Source of the DNA: Escherichia phage vB_EcoS-12210III
Sequence record: MK907227.1
Strand: one strand, 5' to 3'
Length of the DNA stretch: 44,219 nucleotides
The position numbers and the translations under genes are program-made. The notes beneath the pieces are model-generated. The model saw only the letters and a list, made by a program, of their open reading frames with translations. It had not been told where the DNA came from and ran no database searches. Below, piece after piece: positions 1,923-43,952 of this stretch; the stretch's first letter is position 1; each line of letters opens with the position of its first letter.

Positions 1923-1997
1923 GCTCTGCTAGCTCAATAGGATAGTAGCAACGACCTTCTAAGTCGTAGGTTACTGGTTCGAATCCAGTGCGGAGCG
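1923..1997 (+). tRNA. tRNA-Arg, anticodon UCU (reads AGA); CCA encoded at 1998-2000
   Basis: Manual fold: acceptor GCTCTGC/GCGGAGC (one G-U pair), U8, D-arm with GG, anticodon stem ACGAC/GTCGT, loop CTTCTAA (U33, anticodon TCT), 5-nt variable loop, T-arm ACTGG-TTCGAAT-CCAGT, discriminator G. Confidence 0.7.
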
Positions 1998-2015
1998 CCA
2001 ATAAAGGAGTTCATT

Positions 2016-2834: not shown

Positions 2835-4409
2835 ATGAGTGATGTTTTAGTTTGGGAGGAGCTATCCCAATCAGAAAAGCAAGCCATCAGGCTTCTTTCC
2901 ACGCATAACTTCGAGACATTCCTTCGGGTATGGTTCAGCCTGACACAGGGCCAGAAGTACATCATGAACTGGCATCACAGGTATCTTTGCAGGATAGTTG
3001 ACGAGATTATTAGCGGAGATCGAAAGGATACAATCATAAACGTATCGCCTGGCGCCGGTAAAACCGAGATCACATCCATCCACTTTCCAGTTTATAGCTA
3101 TCTAAAACTACCAAAAGTGCGAAATCTTAGCCTTTCGTTCTCTGATAGCCTGGTTAAGCGAAACTCTAAGCGAGTGCGCGACCTAATTAAGTGCAAGGAG
3201 TTTCAGGAGCTATTCCCTAGCAAGTTTGGCACGTGCAAGGATGATGAGATTCAGGTTCTCGATGAGTCAGGCAAGGTTCGCTTTGAGTCGATATCAAAAG
3301 CTATCGGAGGCCAGATTACAGGTTCACGTGGCGGCTACATTACTGACACCTATAGTGGTTGCCTTATGCTGGATGATGTAGATAAGGTTGATGACATGTT
3401 TAGCAAGGTTCGCCGAGAGTCGGTTCATATGCTCCTGAAGAACACCATTCGCTCTCGTAGGGCTAGCTCGGTCAAGGGTAAGGCCACACCAATTATTTCC
3501 ATACAGCAGCGATTGCATGTTAACGACTCAAGTTGGTTCATGGCTGAATCTGGAGGTATGGGGATAGACTTCGATGTGGTGAAGATTCCGGCGATAGTTA
3601 CTGAGGATTACATCGACACACTTCCTGACTGGTTAAAACCACACTTCGAGGCTGACGTTCTATCTAGTGAGTACATCGAGCGAGATGGTGTTAAGTACTA
3701 CAGCTACTACCCACAAAAGGAATCCATTCATGATTTAATGGCTATGCAAGACGCAGACCCATACACGTTCGCAAGTCAATATATGCAAAGCCCCATAGCT
3801 CTAGGTGGCAACATGGTGGATACGGATTGGTTTATACGTTACGGTGGAGATTTGCGAGCGCCATTGAAGTATGATTACCGATTTATTACTGCGGATACCG
3901 CGCTTACCACGAAGTCGTACAGTGACTTTAGTGTATTCCAGCTGTGGGGAGTAAAAGACAGAAAGCTATACCTTCTTGATATGGTTAGGGGTAAGTATGA
4001 AGCGCCCGAGCTTGAGGCTACCTTGCTAGAGTTTGAATCCAATGCGAGAAAGACTAATCGGGAGGAGGGTATTCTTCGGAAGGTAATCATCGAGAAGAAA
4101 GCATCTGGTATCGGTCTGATTCAATCTGCAAGCAGGGTTATGCGTACACCTATTGAGCCATTTATACCAGATACAGATAAAGTTACCAGAGTGCTGTCAG
4201 CAATGCCTCAGATTAAGGCTGGAAATGTAATGATTCCAGAATCGGCGCCGTGGATGAGTGCATTCATCTCTGAGTTTTCAGCATTTACAGCAGACATGAG
4301 CCACCGCCATGATGACATTGTAGATACAACAACAATGGCAATAAACTGCGAGCTAAACCTTGCAGATGACCCTAAATCGCGGATGTTACGCCTCGCAGGA
4401 ATTAAATAA
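2835..4409 (+). CDS. Terminase large subunit
   Basis: 524 aa; N-terminal P-loop (VSPGAGKTE), C-terminal nuclease-like region with conserved acidic residues; canonical position before the portal gene. Confidence 0.85.
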   Translation: MSDVLVWEELSQSEKQAIRLLSTHNFETFLRVWFSLTQGQKYIMNWHHRYLCRIVDEIISGDRKDTIINVSPGAGKTEITSIHFPVYSYLKLPKVRNLSLSFSDSLVKRNSKRVRDLIKCKEFQELFPSKFGTCKDDEIQVLDESGKVRFESISKAIGGQITGSRGGYITDTYSGCLMLDDVDKVDDMFSKVRRESVHMLLKNTIRSRRASSVKGKATPIISIQQRLHVNDSSWFMAESGGMGIDFDVVKIPAIVTEDYIDTLPDWLKPHFEADVLSSEYIERDGVKYYSYYPQKESIHDLMAMQDADPYTFASQYMQSPIALGGNMVDTDWFIRYGGDLRAPLKYDYRFITADTALTTKSYSDFSVFQLWGVKDRKLYLLDMVRGKYEAPELEATLLEFESNARKTNREEGILRKVIIEKKASGIGLIQSASRVMRTPIEPFIPDTDKVTRVLSAMPQIKAGNVMIPESAPWMSAFISEFSAFTADMSHRHDDIVDTTTMAINCELNLADDPKSRMLRLAGIK

Positions 4410-38178: not shown

Positions 38179-39762
38179 TCACCCCAATAGTCGTGGATTA
38201 ATGTAAACTTTATCACCAATCAGGCACGTGTAGTTTTTCTCATCAAGCATTGGCAGCAAGTGGTCTTTAATCTTCGTCATTACTCCCGCTTGAGCCTCGA
38301 ACGGCTTAACCTTGCGAGCCGCTTCATATAGCGAACGAATACCTACTACTCCTTTCCCGTTTTTGCCTTGCTTAATCAGGATATCAATCAGCTTATTCAT
38401 CTCTGCATTGTCGCCAGCGTGACCCGCGGCGTTAGCGGATGACAAATAAGTCTTGCTAAGTTCCTGGAACATAATTACAGCTTCCTGCATTGTATCAAGC
38501 TCAATTTCTCTCGACTTCTGAGGGCTACCGCCATTTGGGTTGAACCAGTTACGCACAGTGTGAAGAACCGCCGCAATCCTGATTGCCTGCTTATCGAACT
38601 TACCCAACGCGCCTCGCAACATTGTGTGTGAATACTTCCCGCCGTCAGCAAGGTGCGGTTCCATCTCCTGACGCGCGCGGTTGAGATATTTCATTGCTGA
38701 ATTACTAACTGTCAACTTAACTTCTTGTTCATTCATGATTTCATGAACCAGACGGAAGTAGTTAGCCTTAAGCTCACCATCTATCGGTTCGTAAGTTGAC
38801 TCACCATTTTCATCAACAAACACACGCTCGCCCAGGAATGACTTTTCACGTACAAGCAGGAAACGTTCAGATACACCGATACCACGCGCGCCAGCGTTCA
38901 TGATCGCATTGATTGTTTCATCCTGTGCAATTACAGAGATGCAACCCATAGCAACAAAGCTCATATTGTTTTCTGCGTTAGCACGCGCAATTGACACGTT
39001 ACCAGCATCCCAGGCCTTCAGCACAAGCTCGCTGTTCGTTTTCTTCGAACCATCACCATAGGTCATACCAAGCAGTGAGTTGACGCTGGTTGCTTCATCT
39101 GATATTACAGCAAAGCTGCCCTGGCGGTTGTTTATTCGCGCAAGTCCTTCCGGTGTGGTATCTGACACAGGGAAAACGATATCACATAGTTTCTCGAGTT
39201 TTTCCTCTAGTTCCTCTTTCTCCTCAAAAAGTGAAGCCATCTCTGACGGAGATTTTTCCTGCTTCATCTCTTTGGATAATTCAGATAGTTTTGCCATAAT
39301 TTTCTTGCGCTCACGCTTTCTCACTTTATTTAGTCGCTCAGTCTCAGCAATCATTGGAGCAATTGAAAGTGAGTTGATTGCTGATTTACCCGTCGATGGT
39401 GGCTGACTCGTTACGACGTACAGCGAAGTCGGTTGCTGCGTTCCGTGATACTCAACAGTAAATCGACCCAGCATTGCAGCGGAAATACACCCCAGGAAGT
39501 GCATGTAAGCTGACGACTCAGGGAACTGAACAGAACGGGCAATATTAGCTGACAGCTTACCAACAACATCAATGTCATTACCTAGTGAGATTACTGGATA
39601 CTTGTCATTAGCTGCATCAATCTCGACTGGTGCTTTCCAGAATGATTGAGACTGGCGATAGCCATTAGCATTAATGGCGACGCGCAGGGGCGGGAGGTTT
39701 TCTGCGGCAGCAATTGCCATAACCTGTTCAACAGATAGTTTATCTTCGTTGAAATCGAACAT
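38179..39762 (-). CDS. P-loop NTPase, DUF3987-like (putative replication/primase-associated ATPase)
   Basis: 527 aa; Walker A-like SQPPSTGKS and Walker B-like AVISDEAT; its N- and C-terminal segments are paralogous to the protein at 42248..42670. Confidence 0.6.
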   Translation of the reverse strand: MFDFNEDKLSVEQVMAIAAAENLPPLRVAINANGYRQSQSFWKAPVEIDAANDKYPVISLGNDIDVVGKLSANIARSVQFPESSAYMHFLGCISAAMLGRFTVEYHGTQQPTSLYVVTSQPPSTGKSAINSLSIAPMIAETERLNKVRKRERKKIMAKLSELSKEMKQEKSPSEMASLFEEKEELEEKLEKLCDIVFPVSDTTPEGLARINNRQGSFAVISDEATSVNSLLGMTYGDGSKKTNSELVLKAWDAGNVSIARANAENNMSFVAMGCISVIAQDETINAIMNAGARGIGVSERFLLVREKSFLGERVFVDENGESTYEPIDGELKANYFRLVHEIMNEQEVKLTVSNSAMKYLNRARQEMEPHLADGGKYSHTMLRGALGKFDKQAIRIAAVLHTVRNWFNPNGGSPQKSREIELDTMQEAVIMFQELSKTYLSSANAAGHAGDNAEMNKLIDILIKQGKNGKGVVGIRSLYEAARKVKPFEAQAGVMTKIKDHLLPMLDEKNYTCLIGDKVYINPRLLG

Positions 39763-39792
39763 TACTTGTCTCCGTATTGTTTCTGAGCGGCC

Positions 39793-39836
39793 ATTATATC
39801 AACGACCGCTTATAATTCATTGTCAATTTGTGCTTA
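39793..39836 (-). promoter_or_regulatory. Conserved phage promoter unit (minus): palindrome variant 39820-39836 (hexamer TTGACA), 22-nt spacer, -10 TATAAT (39793-39798)
   Basis: Family member upstream of the NTPase gene. Confidence 0.5.
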
Positions 39837-40190
39837 TTATCGGTATTGAGCCTCAAAGCGGTAGTCGCCGCAAACTGTAACAAAGCCAACATCTTCGTCA
39901 CGATATAGCTGCCATGCGCTGCCCTCTTTATCGTAAATGTATCCAGCGAACTGACCAAGTCCAGCATGGAGATCTACTTGATATCTCTTCCCTTCAGTGA
40001 AGTATTTACGAATGGATGATCGATGATTAACATTTGTGCAGTAAATGGTCTTTGTCTTGATGTACTTGCCGCGCTCTTCAATGTTAATCCATTTTCCATC
40101 TTTCTTGATTTGCTCTACGCCATCTTTTACTCTGGCTTTGTATAATACGTTTTCGTTACTGATCCAGTTTTTGGTAATCGTAGTTGTCAT
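39837..40190 (-). CDS. Hypothetical protein (117 aa)
   Basis: ORF from the track; ATGA overlap with the upstream small ORF. Confidence 0.5.
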   Translation of the reverse strand: MTTTITKNWISNENVLYKARVKDGVEQIKKDGKWINIEERGKYIKTKTIYCTNVNHRSSIRKYFTEGKRYQVDLHAGLGQFAGYIYDKEGSAWQLYRDEDVGFVTVCGDYRFEAQYR

Positions 40191-40351
40191 TTTGTTACTC
40201 TCTTAGTTGTCCACATGAATTTGTTAGGTACTGATTTGCGCACGATTCGCACAACAATCTTGTCAACCTTCTGAACTAAACCGTAAATCTTCCCATCAAG
40301 TGACGCGCGGTACAATGCCTCTTCTATCGCGTCATGAAAGTTGTCGAACAT
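40187..40351 (-). CDS. Small hypothetical protein (54 aa)
   Basis: ATG 40351 downstream of a promoter unit and leader (RBS GGGAG). Confidence 0.3.
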   Translation of the reverse strand: MFDNFHDAIEEALYRASLDGKIYGLVQKVDKIVVRIVRKSVPNKFMWTTKRVTK

Positions 40352-40377
40352 TTCTTATCTCCCGTTTCGATGTAAAG

Positions 40378-40421
40378 ATAATACCGCATCCTTGCGATTT
40401 CGTTTTAGCAATTCGTGCTAT
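40378..40421 (-). promoter_or_regulatory. Conserved phage promoter unit (minus): palindrome 40405-40421, 22-nt spacer, -10 TATTAT (40378-40383), leader CATCGAAACGG
   Basis: Family member. Confidence 0.5.
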
Positions 40422-40569
40422 TTCGTGCTTTTTCTATCGCCTTGAGCATAATCTCGTGAGAATCCAGTAGGTCCTCATTAAACCAGTCACCGCAAGGCCA
40501 ACCCTTGCCGCTGTAGGCACTTATGACCTCAAGATCGAAATAATTTATCTCAGATGGTAATAGCATCAT
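40405..40569 (-). CDS. Small hypothetical protein (54 aa)
   Basis: ATG overlapping the upstream stop; 3' end overlaps the promoter palindrome. Confidence 0.3.
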   Translation of the reverse strand: MMLLPSEINYFDLEVISAYSGKGWPCGDWFNEDLLDSHEIMLKAIEKARNSTNC

Positions 40570-40805
40570 TTCACCTCGTCAAAAGTTGCAATTCCAGGGA
40601 TAAACATCACAACATTCCAGCCTGCAATGGCAATCCAGCCAGAATCGTTCTTGTGCGGTCGCTCAGCGCCATTAATCAACCACTCGTTCGGGATTGCCTT
40701 GCCGTTAATGATTAGTGGCTCAGCGTTGTATACAGAGCCCTTTACGAACGGTGTCAAAATCTTCTTGTCCGTGCTGGTGATACAGTTAGTGCAGCGAATT
40801 TTCAT
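40566..40805 (-). CDS. Hypothetical protein (79 aa)
   Basis: ORF from the track. Confidence 0.45.
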   Translation of the reverse strand: MKIRCTNCITSTDKKILTPFVKGSVYNAEPLIINGKAIPNEWLINGAERPHKNDSGWIAIAGWNVVMFIPGIATFDEVK

Positions 40806-40815
40806 ATCTCAATCT

Positions 40816-40995
40816 TCAAATAAATGGTAAACATTCAACGCATCCAAGTCCATCACAGCACAGGAATTCATCCTCTGACTGGAATTGCTTAGCCAAGTTA
40901 ATGTCCAACTTTCCGCGCAACACAAGGTCTGTGTAATCTTCGTTAAGCCCAATCAGTGCGCATTCGTTACGAAGTTCATCTTTATCAATCTTCAT
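40816..40995 (-). CDS. Small Cys-containing hypothetical protein (59 aa)
   Basis: ATG 40995 with RBS GAGGAG downstream of a promoter unit; C-terminal CCDGLGCVEC. Confidence 0.35.
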   Translation of the reverse strand: MKIDKDELRNECALIGLNEDYTDLVLRGKLDINLAKQFQSEDEFLCCDGLGCVECLPFI

Positions 40996-41022
40996 TTCTA
41001 TCTCCTCGTTTTTGATGAGCTA

Positions 41023-41067
41023 ACTATAGCCTCGCTAACTCATAATGTCTTTAGCAAAAAGCGCTAT
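41023..41067 (-). promoter_or_regulatory. Conserved phage promoter unit (minus): palindrome variant 41051-41067, 23-nt spacer, -10 TATAGT (41023-41028)
   Basis: Family member. Confidence 0.45.
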
Positions 41068-41354
41068 TCGTCAGATTTATGCATTGTTGCAGATATTGCA
41101 ATGATTCACATGATTATTGCACATACAGCAATATTGCTTCTGATGCAATGATGTTTTTGATTGTTGCGAAAAGTGAAATGAAGTGGTGGGTGAGTGAATG
41201 AAAGATGGATTGACTACCATACAAGTTGATTTTCATTCTTGGTGAGCCATTCTTGAGATATACGAGTAACCATCGTATACCAAGTGTCGTCACAAAAGTT
41301 AGTTACCACTAACCTACGTTTTTTACGCGAGATATACGCACGATATACAATATA

Positions 41355-41425
41355 ATATCTATATATATCAACCTTTTACTTTATTATTATTATTATTATT
41401 ATATATATGTATACTGTGTATACCG
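41355..41425. repeat. AT-rich ~70-bp repeat, copy B (with (TTA)6 microsatellite), inside a 540-bp non-coding AT-rich region
   Basis: Matches copy A at 24319-24388. Confidence 0.8.
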
Positions 41426-41699
41426 ATAATTGATTGGATAATTGATATGTTCCGCGCAGATATTCTGACACTTGTCAGAATGGGATGACATTGTAGGAAT
41501 AAAAAGGCGCATATATAGGAAAGCACTCCCAAAAACGGTACACAGGGGATACGGCACGTTTACAACCAGTGCTGACGCTGCCTTGGAGGCCGAAAAAACG
41601 TATCCGCGATGGAATAGACATAAAAATACGTTGACCGACACGTAAACAAGTGGCAAGATGGCAATCACTGAAACGAAGTAAACGAAACGAGGTATCAAC

Positions 41700-42248
41700 A
41701 TGCAGAAAGTAACACTTGGCGAAGTTATCCGTGAGATGGTGCGTAACGCAATGGCGTCTGAGAACGGCGAGTTCAAAGTTCCGGTAAGCCAGATATTCAA
41801 ACTTGTTCGCGGCAAGCCATATCCAGAAATGGAGTATGACGAAGAGACTGACGAGATCCTAAACCTGGCAGACAGGGCGATGCCTGAACTCAAGAACTCG
41901 TACATCTACAATACCGTGTCGCGAATGACTGAACTACGAGACGCCAACAAGCGAGCGCGCTACAAGTTCATCTGGATTGACGATGAAGGCGAGCAAACCA
42001 GGCCGGGTAATTTCGACGGCGATGGTGCTGATAAATACCTGGTAATTTATATTGAGAACGGCTCTCACTGGACTGGCAATCGTGAGAAGAAGAAGCAGGA
42101 AGCAGAGAAAGAGGTCGCCATCATTGAAAGGTTCAAGGCTCGGTTACTCAAGATCACACCTAACGTTATCGACCTGCAAGGCGAGCAGAAAGAGGGCGCT
42201 CTCATTGCCCTGGCCCGTTACTATGAAATGATTAAGGAGACTAACTGA
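41700..42248 (+). CDS. Hypothetical protein (182 aa)
   Basis: ORF from the track; leader contains AAACGAAACGAG. Confidence 0.55.
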   Translation: MQKVTLGEVIREMVRNAMASENGEFKVPVSQIFKLVRGKPYPEMEYDEETDEILNLADRAMPELKNSYIYNTVSRMTELRDANKRARYKFIWIDDEGEQTRPGNFDGDGADKYLVIYIENGSHWTGNREKKKQEAEKEVAIIERFKARLLKITPNVIDLQGEQKEGALIALARYYEMIKETN

Positions 42249-42670
42249 TGTTTAATTTCGATGAAGAGAAACTGACGGACGAGCAGATTATGAATATTGC
42301 TATCCAAGATGGGCTGCCACCGCTACTGGTTGCAATCAATGCTAACGGGTATCGACAAACGCAAGGCTTCTGGGGTCATCCCGATGCGTCAGAAGTATAC
42401 AAAGATGAAGCGCTTGGCGTTCTGATTAATATTATTAGGAAAATGGCAAAGAACGGCAAGGGCGTGCTTGGTATCAGGTCTTTATACGAAGGCGCTCGCA
42501 GGGCGAAAAGAATTAAGGGTGGCAATGACAGGCTAATGGCGCGCATTAAGGATGAGTTTATCCCAGCCCTAGAGAGTATGAATCTAGCTTGCCTCATTGG
42601 AGATAAGATTTATGTTCATCCGGCAATCCTCGAGGAGAGCTGGGAGCCTAACTTCAAAGTATACGAATGA
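42248..42670 (+). CDS. Mini-paralog of the DUF3987-like NTPase termini (140 aa; lacks the ATPase core)
   Basis: N-terminus MFNFDEEKLTDEQIMNIA...LPPLLVAINANGYRQTQGFW matches the NTPase N-terminus; C-terminus KNGKGVLGIRSLYEGAR...CLIGDKIYVHP matches the NTPase C-terminus. Confidence 0.6.
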   Translation: MFNFDEEKLTDEQIMNIAIQDGLPPLLVAINANGYRQTQGFWGHPDASEVYKDEALGVLINIIRKMAKNGKGVLGIRSLYEGARRAKRIKGGNDRLMARIKDEFIPALESMNLACLIGDKIYVHPAILEESWEPNFKVYE

Positions 42671-42777
42671 GAGCATCCTAGTAGACTACCATACCACTTC
42701 CGGTACAGTGATGAGGAGGTGAAGGCGGGGATTGAGTTCTACTGGAAAGCGAAAGCTCTCCTGAACGGTGAATATTA

Positions 42778-42993
42778 ATGCTTATAAAATGTGTGTATGT
42801 AAGGCAAGCCAATCACCACAACCTTTCAGTTGTAAATGGCGGGATATACGTGGCTAAGCCGATACCTTGTTTTAATGGCTCATACTACATCAAGGTTGAT
42901 GGTAATGGGTACATAGTTAAGACGATAGGTGAATCCCTTATGATAAAAAGCCTTGGCGTCATAATGGCTAAGTTCGAAATAGTTCGCAAATAG
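42778..42993 (+). CDS. Hypothetical protein (71 aa)
   Basis: ORF from the track. Confidence 0.4.
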   Translation: MLIKCVYVRQANHHNLSVVNGGIYVAKPIPCFNGSYYIKVDGNGYIVKTIGESLMIKSLGVIMAKFEIVRK

Positions 42994-43611: not shown

Positions 43612-43695
43612 ATGCTCCTGCACTATGTAGACGAAAAGTACGCAAAGCTCATGCTTAAGACGCATGGCGGCACAATAACGAGGATTGATATATGA
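43612..43695 (+). CDS. Small hypothetical peptide (27 aa)
   Basis: ATG with RBS-like AGGGG; ATGA overlap with the next gene; coding status uncertain. Confidence 0.25.
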   Translation: MLLHYVDEKYAKLMLKTHGGTITRIDI

Positions 43696-43952
43696 GTAAG
43701 TACAATCGTGAAATTATTGGCATTGATGGCACGGTAACAACAGTGGATGTTTATCGCGTTCTTGATGCGTTTGGTGTATCTGACCCAGCAACGCAGCATG
43801 CAATAAAGAAGATGCTTTGCACTGGTCTGCGTGGTCACAAAGATTACCTTACTGATCTTAATGACTCGATTGATTCATTGCGGAGGGCTAAAGAGCTTTA
43901 CGGGCAGAAGATGATTCATGAATCGTCTAAATCAATTCAGGTTGGTAAATAG
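43692..43952 (+). CDS. Hypothetical protein (86 aa)
   Basis: ORF from the track. Confidence 0.45.
   Translation: MSKYNREIIGIDGTVTTVDVYRVLDAFGVSDPATQHAIKKMLCTGLRGHKDYLTDLNDSIDSLRRAKELYGQKMIHESSKSIQVGK

Follow-up and report, generated by a model that had tools for sequence, protein, structure and literature searches.

A small early gene of Drexlerviridae phages related to both ends of the DUF3987 replicative helicase

Catalytic-domain-less derivatives of replication proteins form a known theme, examples of which are OBPC of herpes simplex virus 1, which corresponds to the C-terminal part of the origin-binding helicase UL9, and the papillomavirus E8^E2 protein. Both are initiator derivatives that lack the motor or effector part and act as competitors, and both arise from the same gene as the full-length protein, by an internal start or by splicing, so that one end only is retained. 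The subject of this report is a 140-amino acid (aa) protein, referred to here as the mini-paralog, that is encoded by Escherichia phage vB_EcoS-12210III (record MK907227.1), a T1-like siphovirus of the Drexlerviridae; the window analysed is the whole stretch of 44,219 nucleotides, and all positions refer to it. The mini-paralog belongs to the same theme, as it too possesses terminal binding modules without a catalytic part and would be made during the same infection as the full-length protein. It differs from OBPC and E8^E2 in being a separate, diverged paralog that is encoded on the opposite strand, 2.5 kb away from its full-length counterpart, with both ends kept and a new tail added.

The full-length counterpart is a DUF3987 (PF13148) protein. 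Proteins of this family, found in phages and mobile elements, are divergent superfamily 6 (SF6), MCM-like replicative helicases that have a winged helix-turn-helix domain at the C-terminus (Kazlauskas et al. 2016, PMC4889955). Unwinding has been shown biochemically only for a distant member of the family, the PriCT-DUF3987 protein AgaPH, which is a 5′-to-3′ helicase that binds its primase, and which provides a precedent for the binding of primase by a terminal domain of a DUF3987 helicase (PMC11724360). The phage encodes a 527-aa member of this family, from which the mini-paralog has its N-terminal module and its winged helix by descent; the mini-paralog, however, lacks the P-loop/AAA+ domain and belongs to a family with a C-terminal tail that the helicases lack. 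That family is PHROG 7327, which is listed as a phage protein family of unknown function.

Homology of the mini-paralog to the helicase termini

The helicase gene is located at 38179..39762 on the minus strand, and its 527-aa product matches Pfam PF13148 with 144.9 bits (cutoff 27) over residues 81-430. This segment (38473..39522, minus strand) constitutes the AAA+/P-loop motor, with a Walker A motif, PPSTGKS, at about residues 121-127 and an MCM-related AAA+ fold. The mini-paralog open reading frame (ORF) occupies 42248..42670 on the plus strand and terminates at an in-frame TGA. When the two translations were compared by BLASTP, residues 1-69 of the mini-paralog aligned with helicase residues 1-73 (49% identity, E 4e-20), and residues 35-128 aligned with helicase residues 439-526 (44% identity, E 2e-21). 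These two independent and significant alignments bear out the original prediction, in which the 140-aa ORF had been described as paralogous to both termini of the 527-aa nucleoside triphosphatase (NTPase). The further proposal that the ATPase core had been excised also holds, as the Pfam DUF3987 domain spans helicase residues 81-430 only and has no match in the mini-paralog, which lacks any Pfam match, and the alignments reach no part of the helicase other than residues 1-73 and 439-526. The missing segment corresponds approximately to helicase residues 43-445, and both breakpoints fall in loops predicted by the structural model. At the family level PHROG 2373 (“DNA helicase”) and PHROG 7327 match each other’s proteins reciprocally. 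The mini-paralog is a helicase paralog by descent that is devoid of the P-loop/AAA+ core, and it cannot be a helicase itself.

The homologous N-terminal modules comprise codons 1-42 of each gene, located at 39637..39762 (minus strand) in the helicase and at 42248..42373 (plus strand) in the mini-paralog, and they share 66% of their amino acids and 67% of their nucleotides. At third codon positions identity is 43%, with synonymous sites near saturation, and 14 of the 28 identical residues are encoded by different codons; no stretch of exact nucleotide identity exceeds 8 nt. The shared sequence of the N-terminal module is therefore held by selection on the protein and not by gene conversion; recent conversion, considered as a cause of its strong conservation, is ruled out by the near-saturated synonymous sites and the shortness of the longest identical stretch. 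The third-position identity and the 8-nt limit, together with the conservation of the gene and a ratio of nonsynonymous to synonymous substitution rates (dN/dS) of about 0.2, likewise show that the resemblance is not an assembly artefact, as had been supposed from the divergence of the two proteins. The arrangement first noted for the two genes, which lie on opposite strands about 2.5 kb apart around an AT-rich region, is also as described, with start codons at 39762 and 42248 separated by 2,485 bp.

In structural models (AlphaFold2) each end is a module of its own, the N-terminal one an acidic three-helix unit and the C-terminal one a basic winged helix; the original prediction, that the terminal modules may form a shared interaction or DNA-binding domain, is refined accordingly. 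The helicase model is confident (predicted local distance difference test score, pLDDT, 90.7; predicted template modelling score, pTM, 0.88), agrees with the published assignment and biochemistry of the family cited above, and places the three short helices of the N-terminal module at positions 10-20, 24-32 and 35-40 in model numbering, which is the true residue number minus 1, as the helicase alignment and model leave out Met1. This module has an isoelectric point (pI) of 4.5 in the helicase, where it carries the motif VAINANGYR..FW, and of 4.0 in the mini-paralog; the columns with the strongest conservation coincide in the two families and read AI..NGYR..W. The winged-helix domain of the helicase (residues ~451-527; 38182..38412, minus strand) has a pI of 9.3, and that of the mini-paralog (codons 55-128; 42410..42631, plus strand), which is 47% identical to it, has a pI of 10.3. 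The mini-paralog family was modelled on a full-length relative with 84% identity, and its model begins with the three short helices seen in the helicase, after which come a canonical winged helix and a tail helix. The C-terminal module shows the winged-helix topology H1-S1-H2-H3-S2-S3 and has structural matches to known winged helices; compared with the C-terminal winged helices of MCM, ORC/Cdc6 and kleisin proteins, however, sequence identity is only 8-20%.

The N-terminal module matched no Pfam family, even at E values up to 10, and searches of PDB sequences with the helicase, the mini-paralog family profile and the DUF7174 protein encoded upstream of the mini-paralog returned nothing significant. 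Among the proteins recovered from a database of representative proteins was a eukaryote-like protein of 633 aa (P0270) with a C-terminal DnaJ domain and a sequence repeated five times (...DMTAEEALAAAEAEGLPLIRSAASSSGYKHV...), the repeats matching mini-paralog profile positions 8-38 with a summed E of 1.4e-8; from these repeats, the helicase N-terminal module may be part of a wider small helical motif. In a metagenomic protein of 222 aa (P0281), the lid and winged-helix end of a DUF3987 helicase follow an N-terminus with an unrelated P-loop; the protein is either a further rearrangement product of this helicase family or a chimera created in assembly.

An accessory early gene with a truncated tail

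The mini-paralog is a genuine accessory early gene of the PHROG 7327 family, whose profile is matched by the 140-aa protein with an E of 1.2e-57 over positions 1-142 of 179. It is the second cistron of an operon that diverges from the control region of the helicase operon, within a variable early region. The first gene of this rightward operon (41700..42248, plus strand) encodes a DUF7174 protein of PHROG 4841 and is found directly upstream of the mini-paralog at every locus examined. Translation signals can be read from the sequence at 42234..42250 on the plus strand, where a Shine-Dalgarno sequence, AAGGAG (42234-42239), is followed by an 8-nt spacer and the ATG, and this ATG has one base in common with the TGA stop of the DUF7174 gene (TGATG). 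The stop/start arrangement is identical at all loci examined, and by this overlap the mini-paralog appears to be translationally coupled to the DUF7174 gene in the early operon. The DUF7174 gene is kept where the mini-paralog has been lost and is present in 133 phage records; no structural or functional annotation of DUF7174, and no literature on it, was found.

Homologues of the mini-paralog form 273 clusters at 90% identity. Of several hundred phage records with this type of helicase, about 112 contain the gene; its carriers belong to the Braunvirinae, the Rogunavirinae and Nouzillyvirus, where it occupies the same slot after the DUF7174 gene. When 1.84 billion representative proteins were searched with a profile, only 45 hits were obtained, comprising helicases, about a dozen full-length mini-paralog lineages and many fragments. 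Pairwise dN/dS values are 0.18-0.29 when the gene is taken as a whole, 0.08-0.24 in the N-terminal module and 0.10-0.38 in the winged helix, compared with 0.01-0.05 for the helicase.

Most homologues are 173-178 aa long. The original prediction gave the length of the ORF correctly as 140 aa, but the family is normally longer and the copy in this genome has been shortened by the TGA at 42668..42670 (plus strand), which occupies codon 141, after ...KVYE, at a position where full-length relatives have a glycine codon (GGx). Beyond the TGA the frame remains open for 35 further codons (42671..42778, plus strand) that encode the conserved tail of the family, EHPSRLPYHFRYSDEEVKAGIEFYWKAKALLNGEY, and ends with a TAA at 42776-42778. 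The tail contains a near-invariant motif, RLPYHLRY (family alignment columns 146-153), and forms an amphipathic helix at positions 155-172 of the mini-paralog model; it has no counterpart in the helicase, and a search for its source elsewhere in the genome recovered no other copy. The 140-aa protein, which does not have the full PHROG 7327 architecture of N-terminal module, winged helix and tail, is a nonsense-truncated allele of a family of about 175 aa.

The same TGA is present in four metagenomic contigs (L003 and L006-L008) whose N-terminal halves differ, and the 140-aa allele is found in several diverged backgrounds, in clusters that are 84-93% identical with both modules intact. A second, independent nonsense mutation, a TAG located 12 codons further upstream, is found in another metagenomic relative (locus L018, 3385..3528) in which the tail frame is likewise intact, and alleles of 128 aa exist. 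Both independent stops fall past the winged helix, in the short linker that leads to the tail; recent knock-outs, low-level read-through or selection acting only against the tail could each account for them.

Loss has gone further in other phages. Rtp and Rogue1 retain only stubs of 19 and 28 codons that start MFDF.E.KLTDEQ. The remnant in Rogue1 (gp04; L011, 1103..1189) is a deletion stub that retains the start overlapping the DUF7174 stop and the last codons, and that in Rtp (rtp2; L012, 1064..1123) is a deletion stub that retains the start overlapping the DUF7174 stop; in A110b only the tail remains (L010, ~3540..3650). Metagenomes contain frameshifted ORFs with the N-terminus only, as well as ORFs in which the N-terminus has been joined in frame to the tail (P0250, P0258 and P0275). 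These remnants and derivatives, together with the two nonsense alleles, show that the mini-paralog is non-essential and often inactivated; it is a conditionally useful gene that is frequently lost. The locus appears to be prone to repeated internal deletions that spare its start and its end.

Stepwise loss in so many relatives, and the removal by the TGA of a tail with a near-invariant motif, raise the question of whether the gene in this genome is simply a decaying pseudogene whose function is gone and whose likeness to the helicase is a historical trace. This is considered improbable. The 140-aa allele has kept both modules intact in several diverged backgrounds, its translation signals are intact, and the placement of two independent stops in the linker past the winged helix is not random and fits selection against the tail only.

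The origin of the gene was addressed with a tree of the concatenated modules. Nine mini-paralogs, all from sequenced loci, form one clade in 100% of bootstraps; this clade adjoins the helicases of the same phages in 78-92% of bootstraps, and its branches are much longer. Mean pairwise identity among the mini-paralogs is 70% for the N-terminal module and 50% for the winged helix; for the co-resident helicases the corresponding values are 92% and 95%. When divergent metagenomic mini-paralogs are added, support for strict monophyly is only 15%, and one of them (P0243), which has a helicase-like winged helix, stands apart from the others. The divergent members nevertheless also have the tail, the architecture and the slot after DUF7174, and a single origin is favoured because all mini-paralogs have the tail and the gene position in common. 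The gene was most likely derived from the helicase once, by duplication and internal deletion, with a second origin, or gene conversion, possible in the P0243 lineage. The reverse direction, in which a motor would have been inserted into an ancestral small protein, was rejected because the mini-paralogs branch next to only part of the helicases and because helicases bearing these termini have a much wider distribution.

It is very probable that these steps took place within one branch of the Drexlerviridae, by duplication of the helicase gene, in-frame loss of the motor, joining of the modules and gain of the tail. The branch would be that of the Braunvirinae, Rogunavirinae and Nouzillyvirus, and the duplicated copy would have lost the whole AAA+ motor in frame, approximately residues 43-445. 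This would have fused the acidic N-terminal module straight to the C-terminal winged helix, which is basic, and the conserved tail (35-50 aa) would be a new addition.

Candidate roles and neighbouring genes

The best explanation of the locus as a whole, to which a probability of roughly 0.4 is assigned, is that of an accessory gene derived from the helicase whose product would be a motor-less mimic and whose allele in this genome may be on its way to loss. For the function itself a tentative proposal, reached by analogy, is that the mini-paralog may be a motor-less protein that competes for the partners of the helicase or serves as their adaptor; the original prediction, of a regulatory or competitive partner of the NTPase, is likewise plausible. 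This role is favoured since the two parts kept under selection are the non-motor parts of the helicase, which serve docking or regulatory functions in related systems. Both helicase modules are likely partner-docking elements, as they remain under selection even without the motor. The mini-paralog would be made from the divergent control region of the helicase, at a position close to the promoter with strong initiation and translational coupling, and would mimic the two docking modules of the helicase without its motor. It would occupy or bridge the partners contacted by the helicase termini, candidates for which are the primase, a single-stranded DNA-binding protein, a host factor, or fork or origin DNA. 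Replisome assembly would in this way be tuned or redirected, with the family-specific tail adding an extra contact.

Several observations weigh against this explanation. The model of the mini-paralog is of moderate quality (pLDDT 75, pTM 0.62), with one of five models being good. Its winged helix is only 24-53% identical to that of the co-resident helicase, which weakens the case for faithful competition through this domain. Most Drexlerviridae with the same helicase termini have no mini-paralog, so the helicase does not need it. Finally, as the tail is cut off in this genome the local copy may be non-functional; the tail-less allele may also be partly functional only, or en route to loss.

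A different role is suggested by the position of the gene next to an AT-rich divergent control region of about 700 bp (40996..41699), which separates the leftward (helicase) from the rightward (mini-paralog) operon and contains clustered palindromes. Here the mini-paralog would be a sequence-specific DNA-binding regulator or origin factor whose winged helix binds the control region or an origin, competing with the helicase or recruiting it, much as motor-less repressors derived from viral initiators do. Both proteins have a basic winged helix, and DNA-binding winged helices of ORC/Cdc6 are among the best structural matches; the putative recognition helix (LMARIKDEFIPALES), however, is acidic and hydrophobic and not basic, and the palindromes are unchanged in sequence and position where the mini-paralog has been lost and while its winged helix diverges. 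A role in sequence-specific DNA binding is accordingly viewed as quite unlikely. The palindromes have the form TTGCA-N5-TGCAA and were rejected as binding sites of the mini-paralog, as they persist unchanged in phages without it; they are probably operators of some other regulator. Three copies, at 41087-41148, form a cluster in the segment 41083..41150, near the start of the leftward operon, and the genome has 9 matches where 3.1 are expected; at all related loci, with the mini-paralog present or lost, two or three copies precede the DUF7174 gene by about 560-620 bp. The control region also contains an (ATT)7 repeat at ~41383 and TA-rich repeats at 41350-41412.

The mini-paralog could also act at an immune interface, either as an anti-defence decoy that titrates a sensor of the helicase or as a liability that triggers abortive infection, with gain and loss of the gene depending on the host; in either case it would be an abundant early protein whose surfaces resemble those of the helicase. 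It resides in a variable early accessory region in which relatives have genes of counter-defence type (in Rtp, for instance, an Stp-like peptide and a polynucleotide kinase), it evolves fast compared with the helicase, and its repeated independent inactivation by nonsense mutation, frameshift and deletion is a pattern typical of defence triggers. The same interval furthermore contains a homologue (40% identity, E 3e-23) of a 128-aa protein of phage SECphi27; this SECphi27 protein sets off the Mokosh type I defence system, and phages that escape the system carry it in frameshifted form (Stokar-Avihail et al.). That trigger, however, is the product of a different gene, and SECphi27 has no mini-paralog. 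In PADLOC neither the helicase, the mini-paralog nor DUF7174 has a match, no escape mutation has been reported in the mini-paralog, and its winged helix is too diverged from that of the helicase for faithful mimicry. An immune role is on balance unlikely. A more specific combination, in which the mini-paralog mimics the docking ends of the helicase and thereby blinds a host immune sensor or hijacks a loading partner early in infection, the tail then becoming recognised by the host, is distinctly doubtful. Recognition of the tail by some hosts would nonetheless explain why the tail has repeatedly been removed, by two stops after the winged helix, or the gene deleted.

The homologue of the SECphi27 trigger is a 117-aa protein of PHROG 2684 encoded at 39837..40190 (minus strand), directly upstream of the helicase, and in SECphi27 the gene of the 128-aa protein is also found directly upstream of a DUF3987 helicase. 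The possibility that the 128-aa Mokosh trigger is a truncated mini-paralog, suggested by the 128-aa alleles of the latter, was considered and rejected on account of this homology and the lack of a mini-paralog in SECphi27. On the other side of the mini-paralog, an 86-aa product encoded at 43692..43952 (plus strand) matches only the C-terminal third of PHROG 2452 (positions 151-229 of 235) and positions 172-243 of 246 of PHROG 17613 (“ATPase”); it may, from these partial matches, be another early gene that represents a fragment of a larger NTPase-family protein, and it is unrelated to the P-loop NTPase genes of JeanPiccard and JulesPiccard. The local gene order is the same in the annotated relatives JeanPiccard (Braunvirinae) and Jk06 (Rogunavirinae), and a region of 5.5 kb is 100% identical in a series of Escherichia phage vB_EcoS genomes (MK9072xx, host E. 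coli DSM 12242). The sole hit of Rfam and ARAGORN in the genome is a tRNA-Arg gene at 1923..2000 (plus strand) with the anticodon TCT, which reads AGA; relatives have the same tRNA in the early region.

Implications for Drexlerviridae replication

Should the mini-paralog prove to be a mimic of the helicase ends in the sense outlined above, it would be the first phage decoy or adaptor built by excising the motor from the phage’s own replicative helicase; if it is only a dispensable leftover, it is a tidy example of domain loss and little more. The existence of many natural knock-out alleles marks the gene as conditionally costly and makes it a candidate for studies of phage-host conflict. With its descent from the helicase, PHROG 7327, a family without an assigned function, gains an evolutionary origin, and two discrete modules of the Drexlerviridae helicase have been identified, a 42-residue N-terminal three-helix unit and a C-terminal winged helix. 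The mini-paralog thus represents a natural “domain dissection” that could help to establish what is bound by the termini of DUF3987/MCM-like phage helicases.

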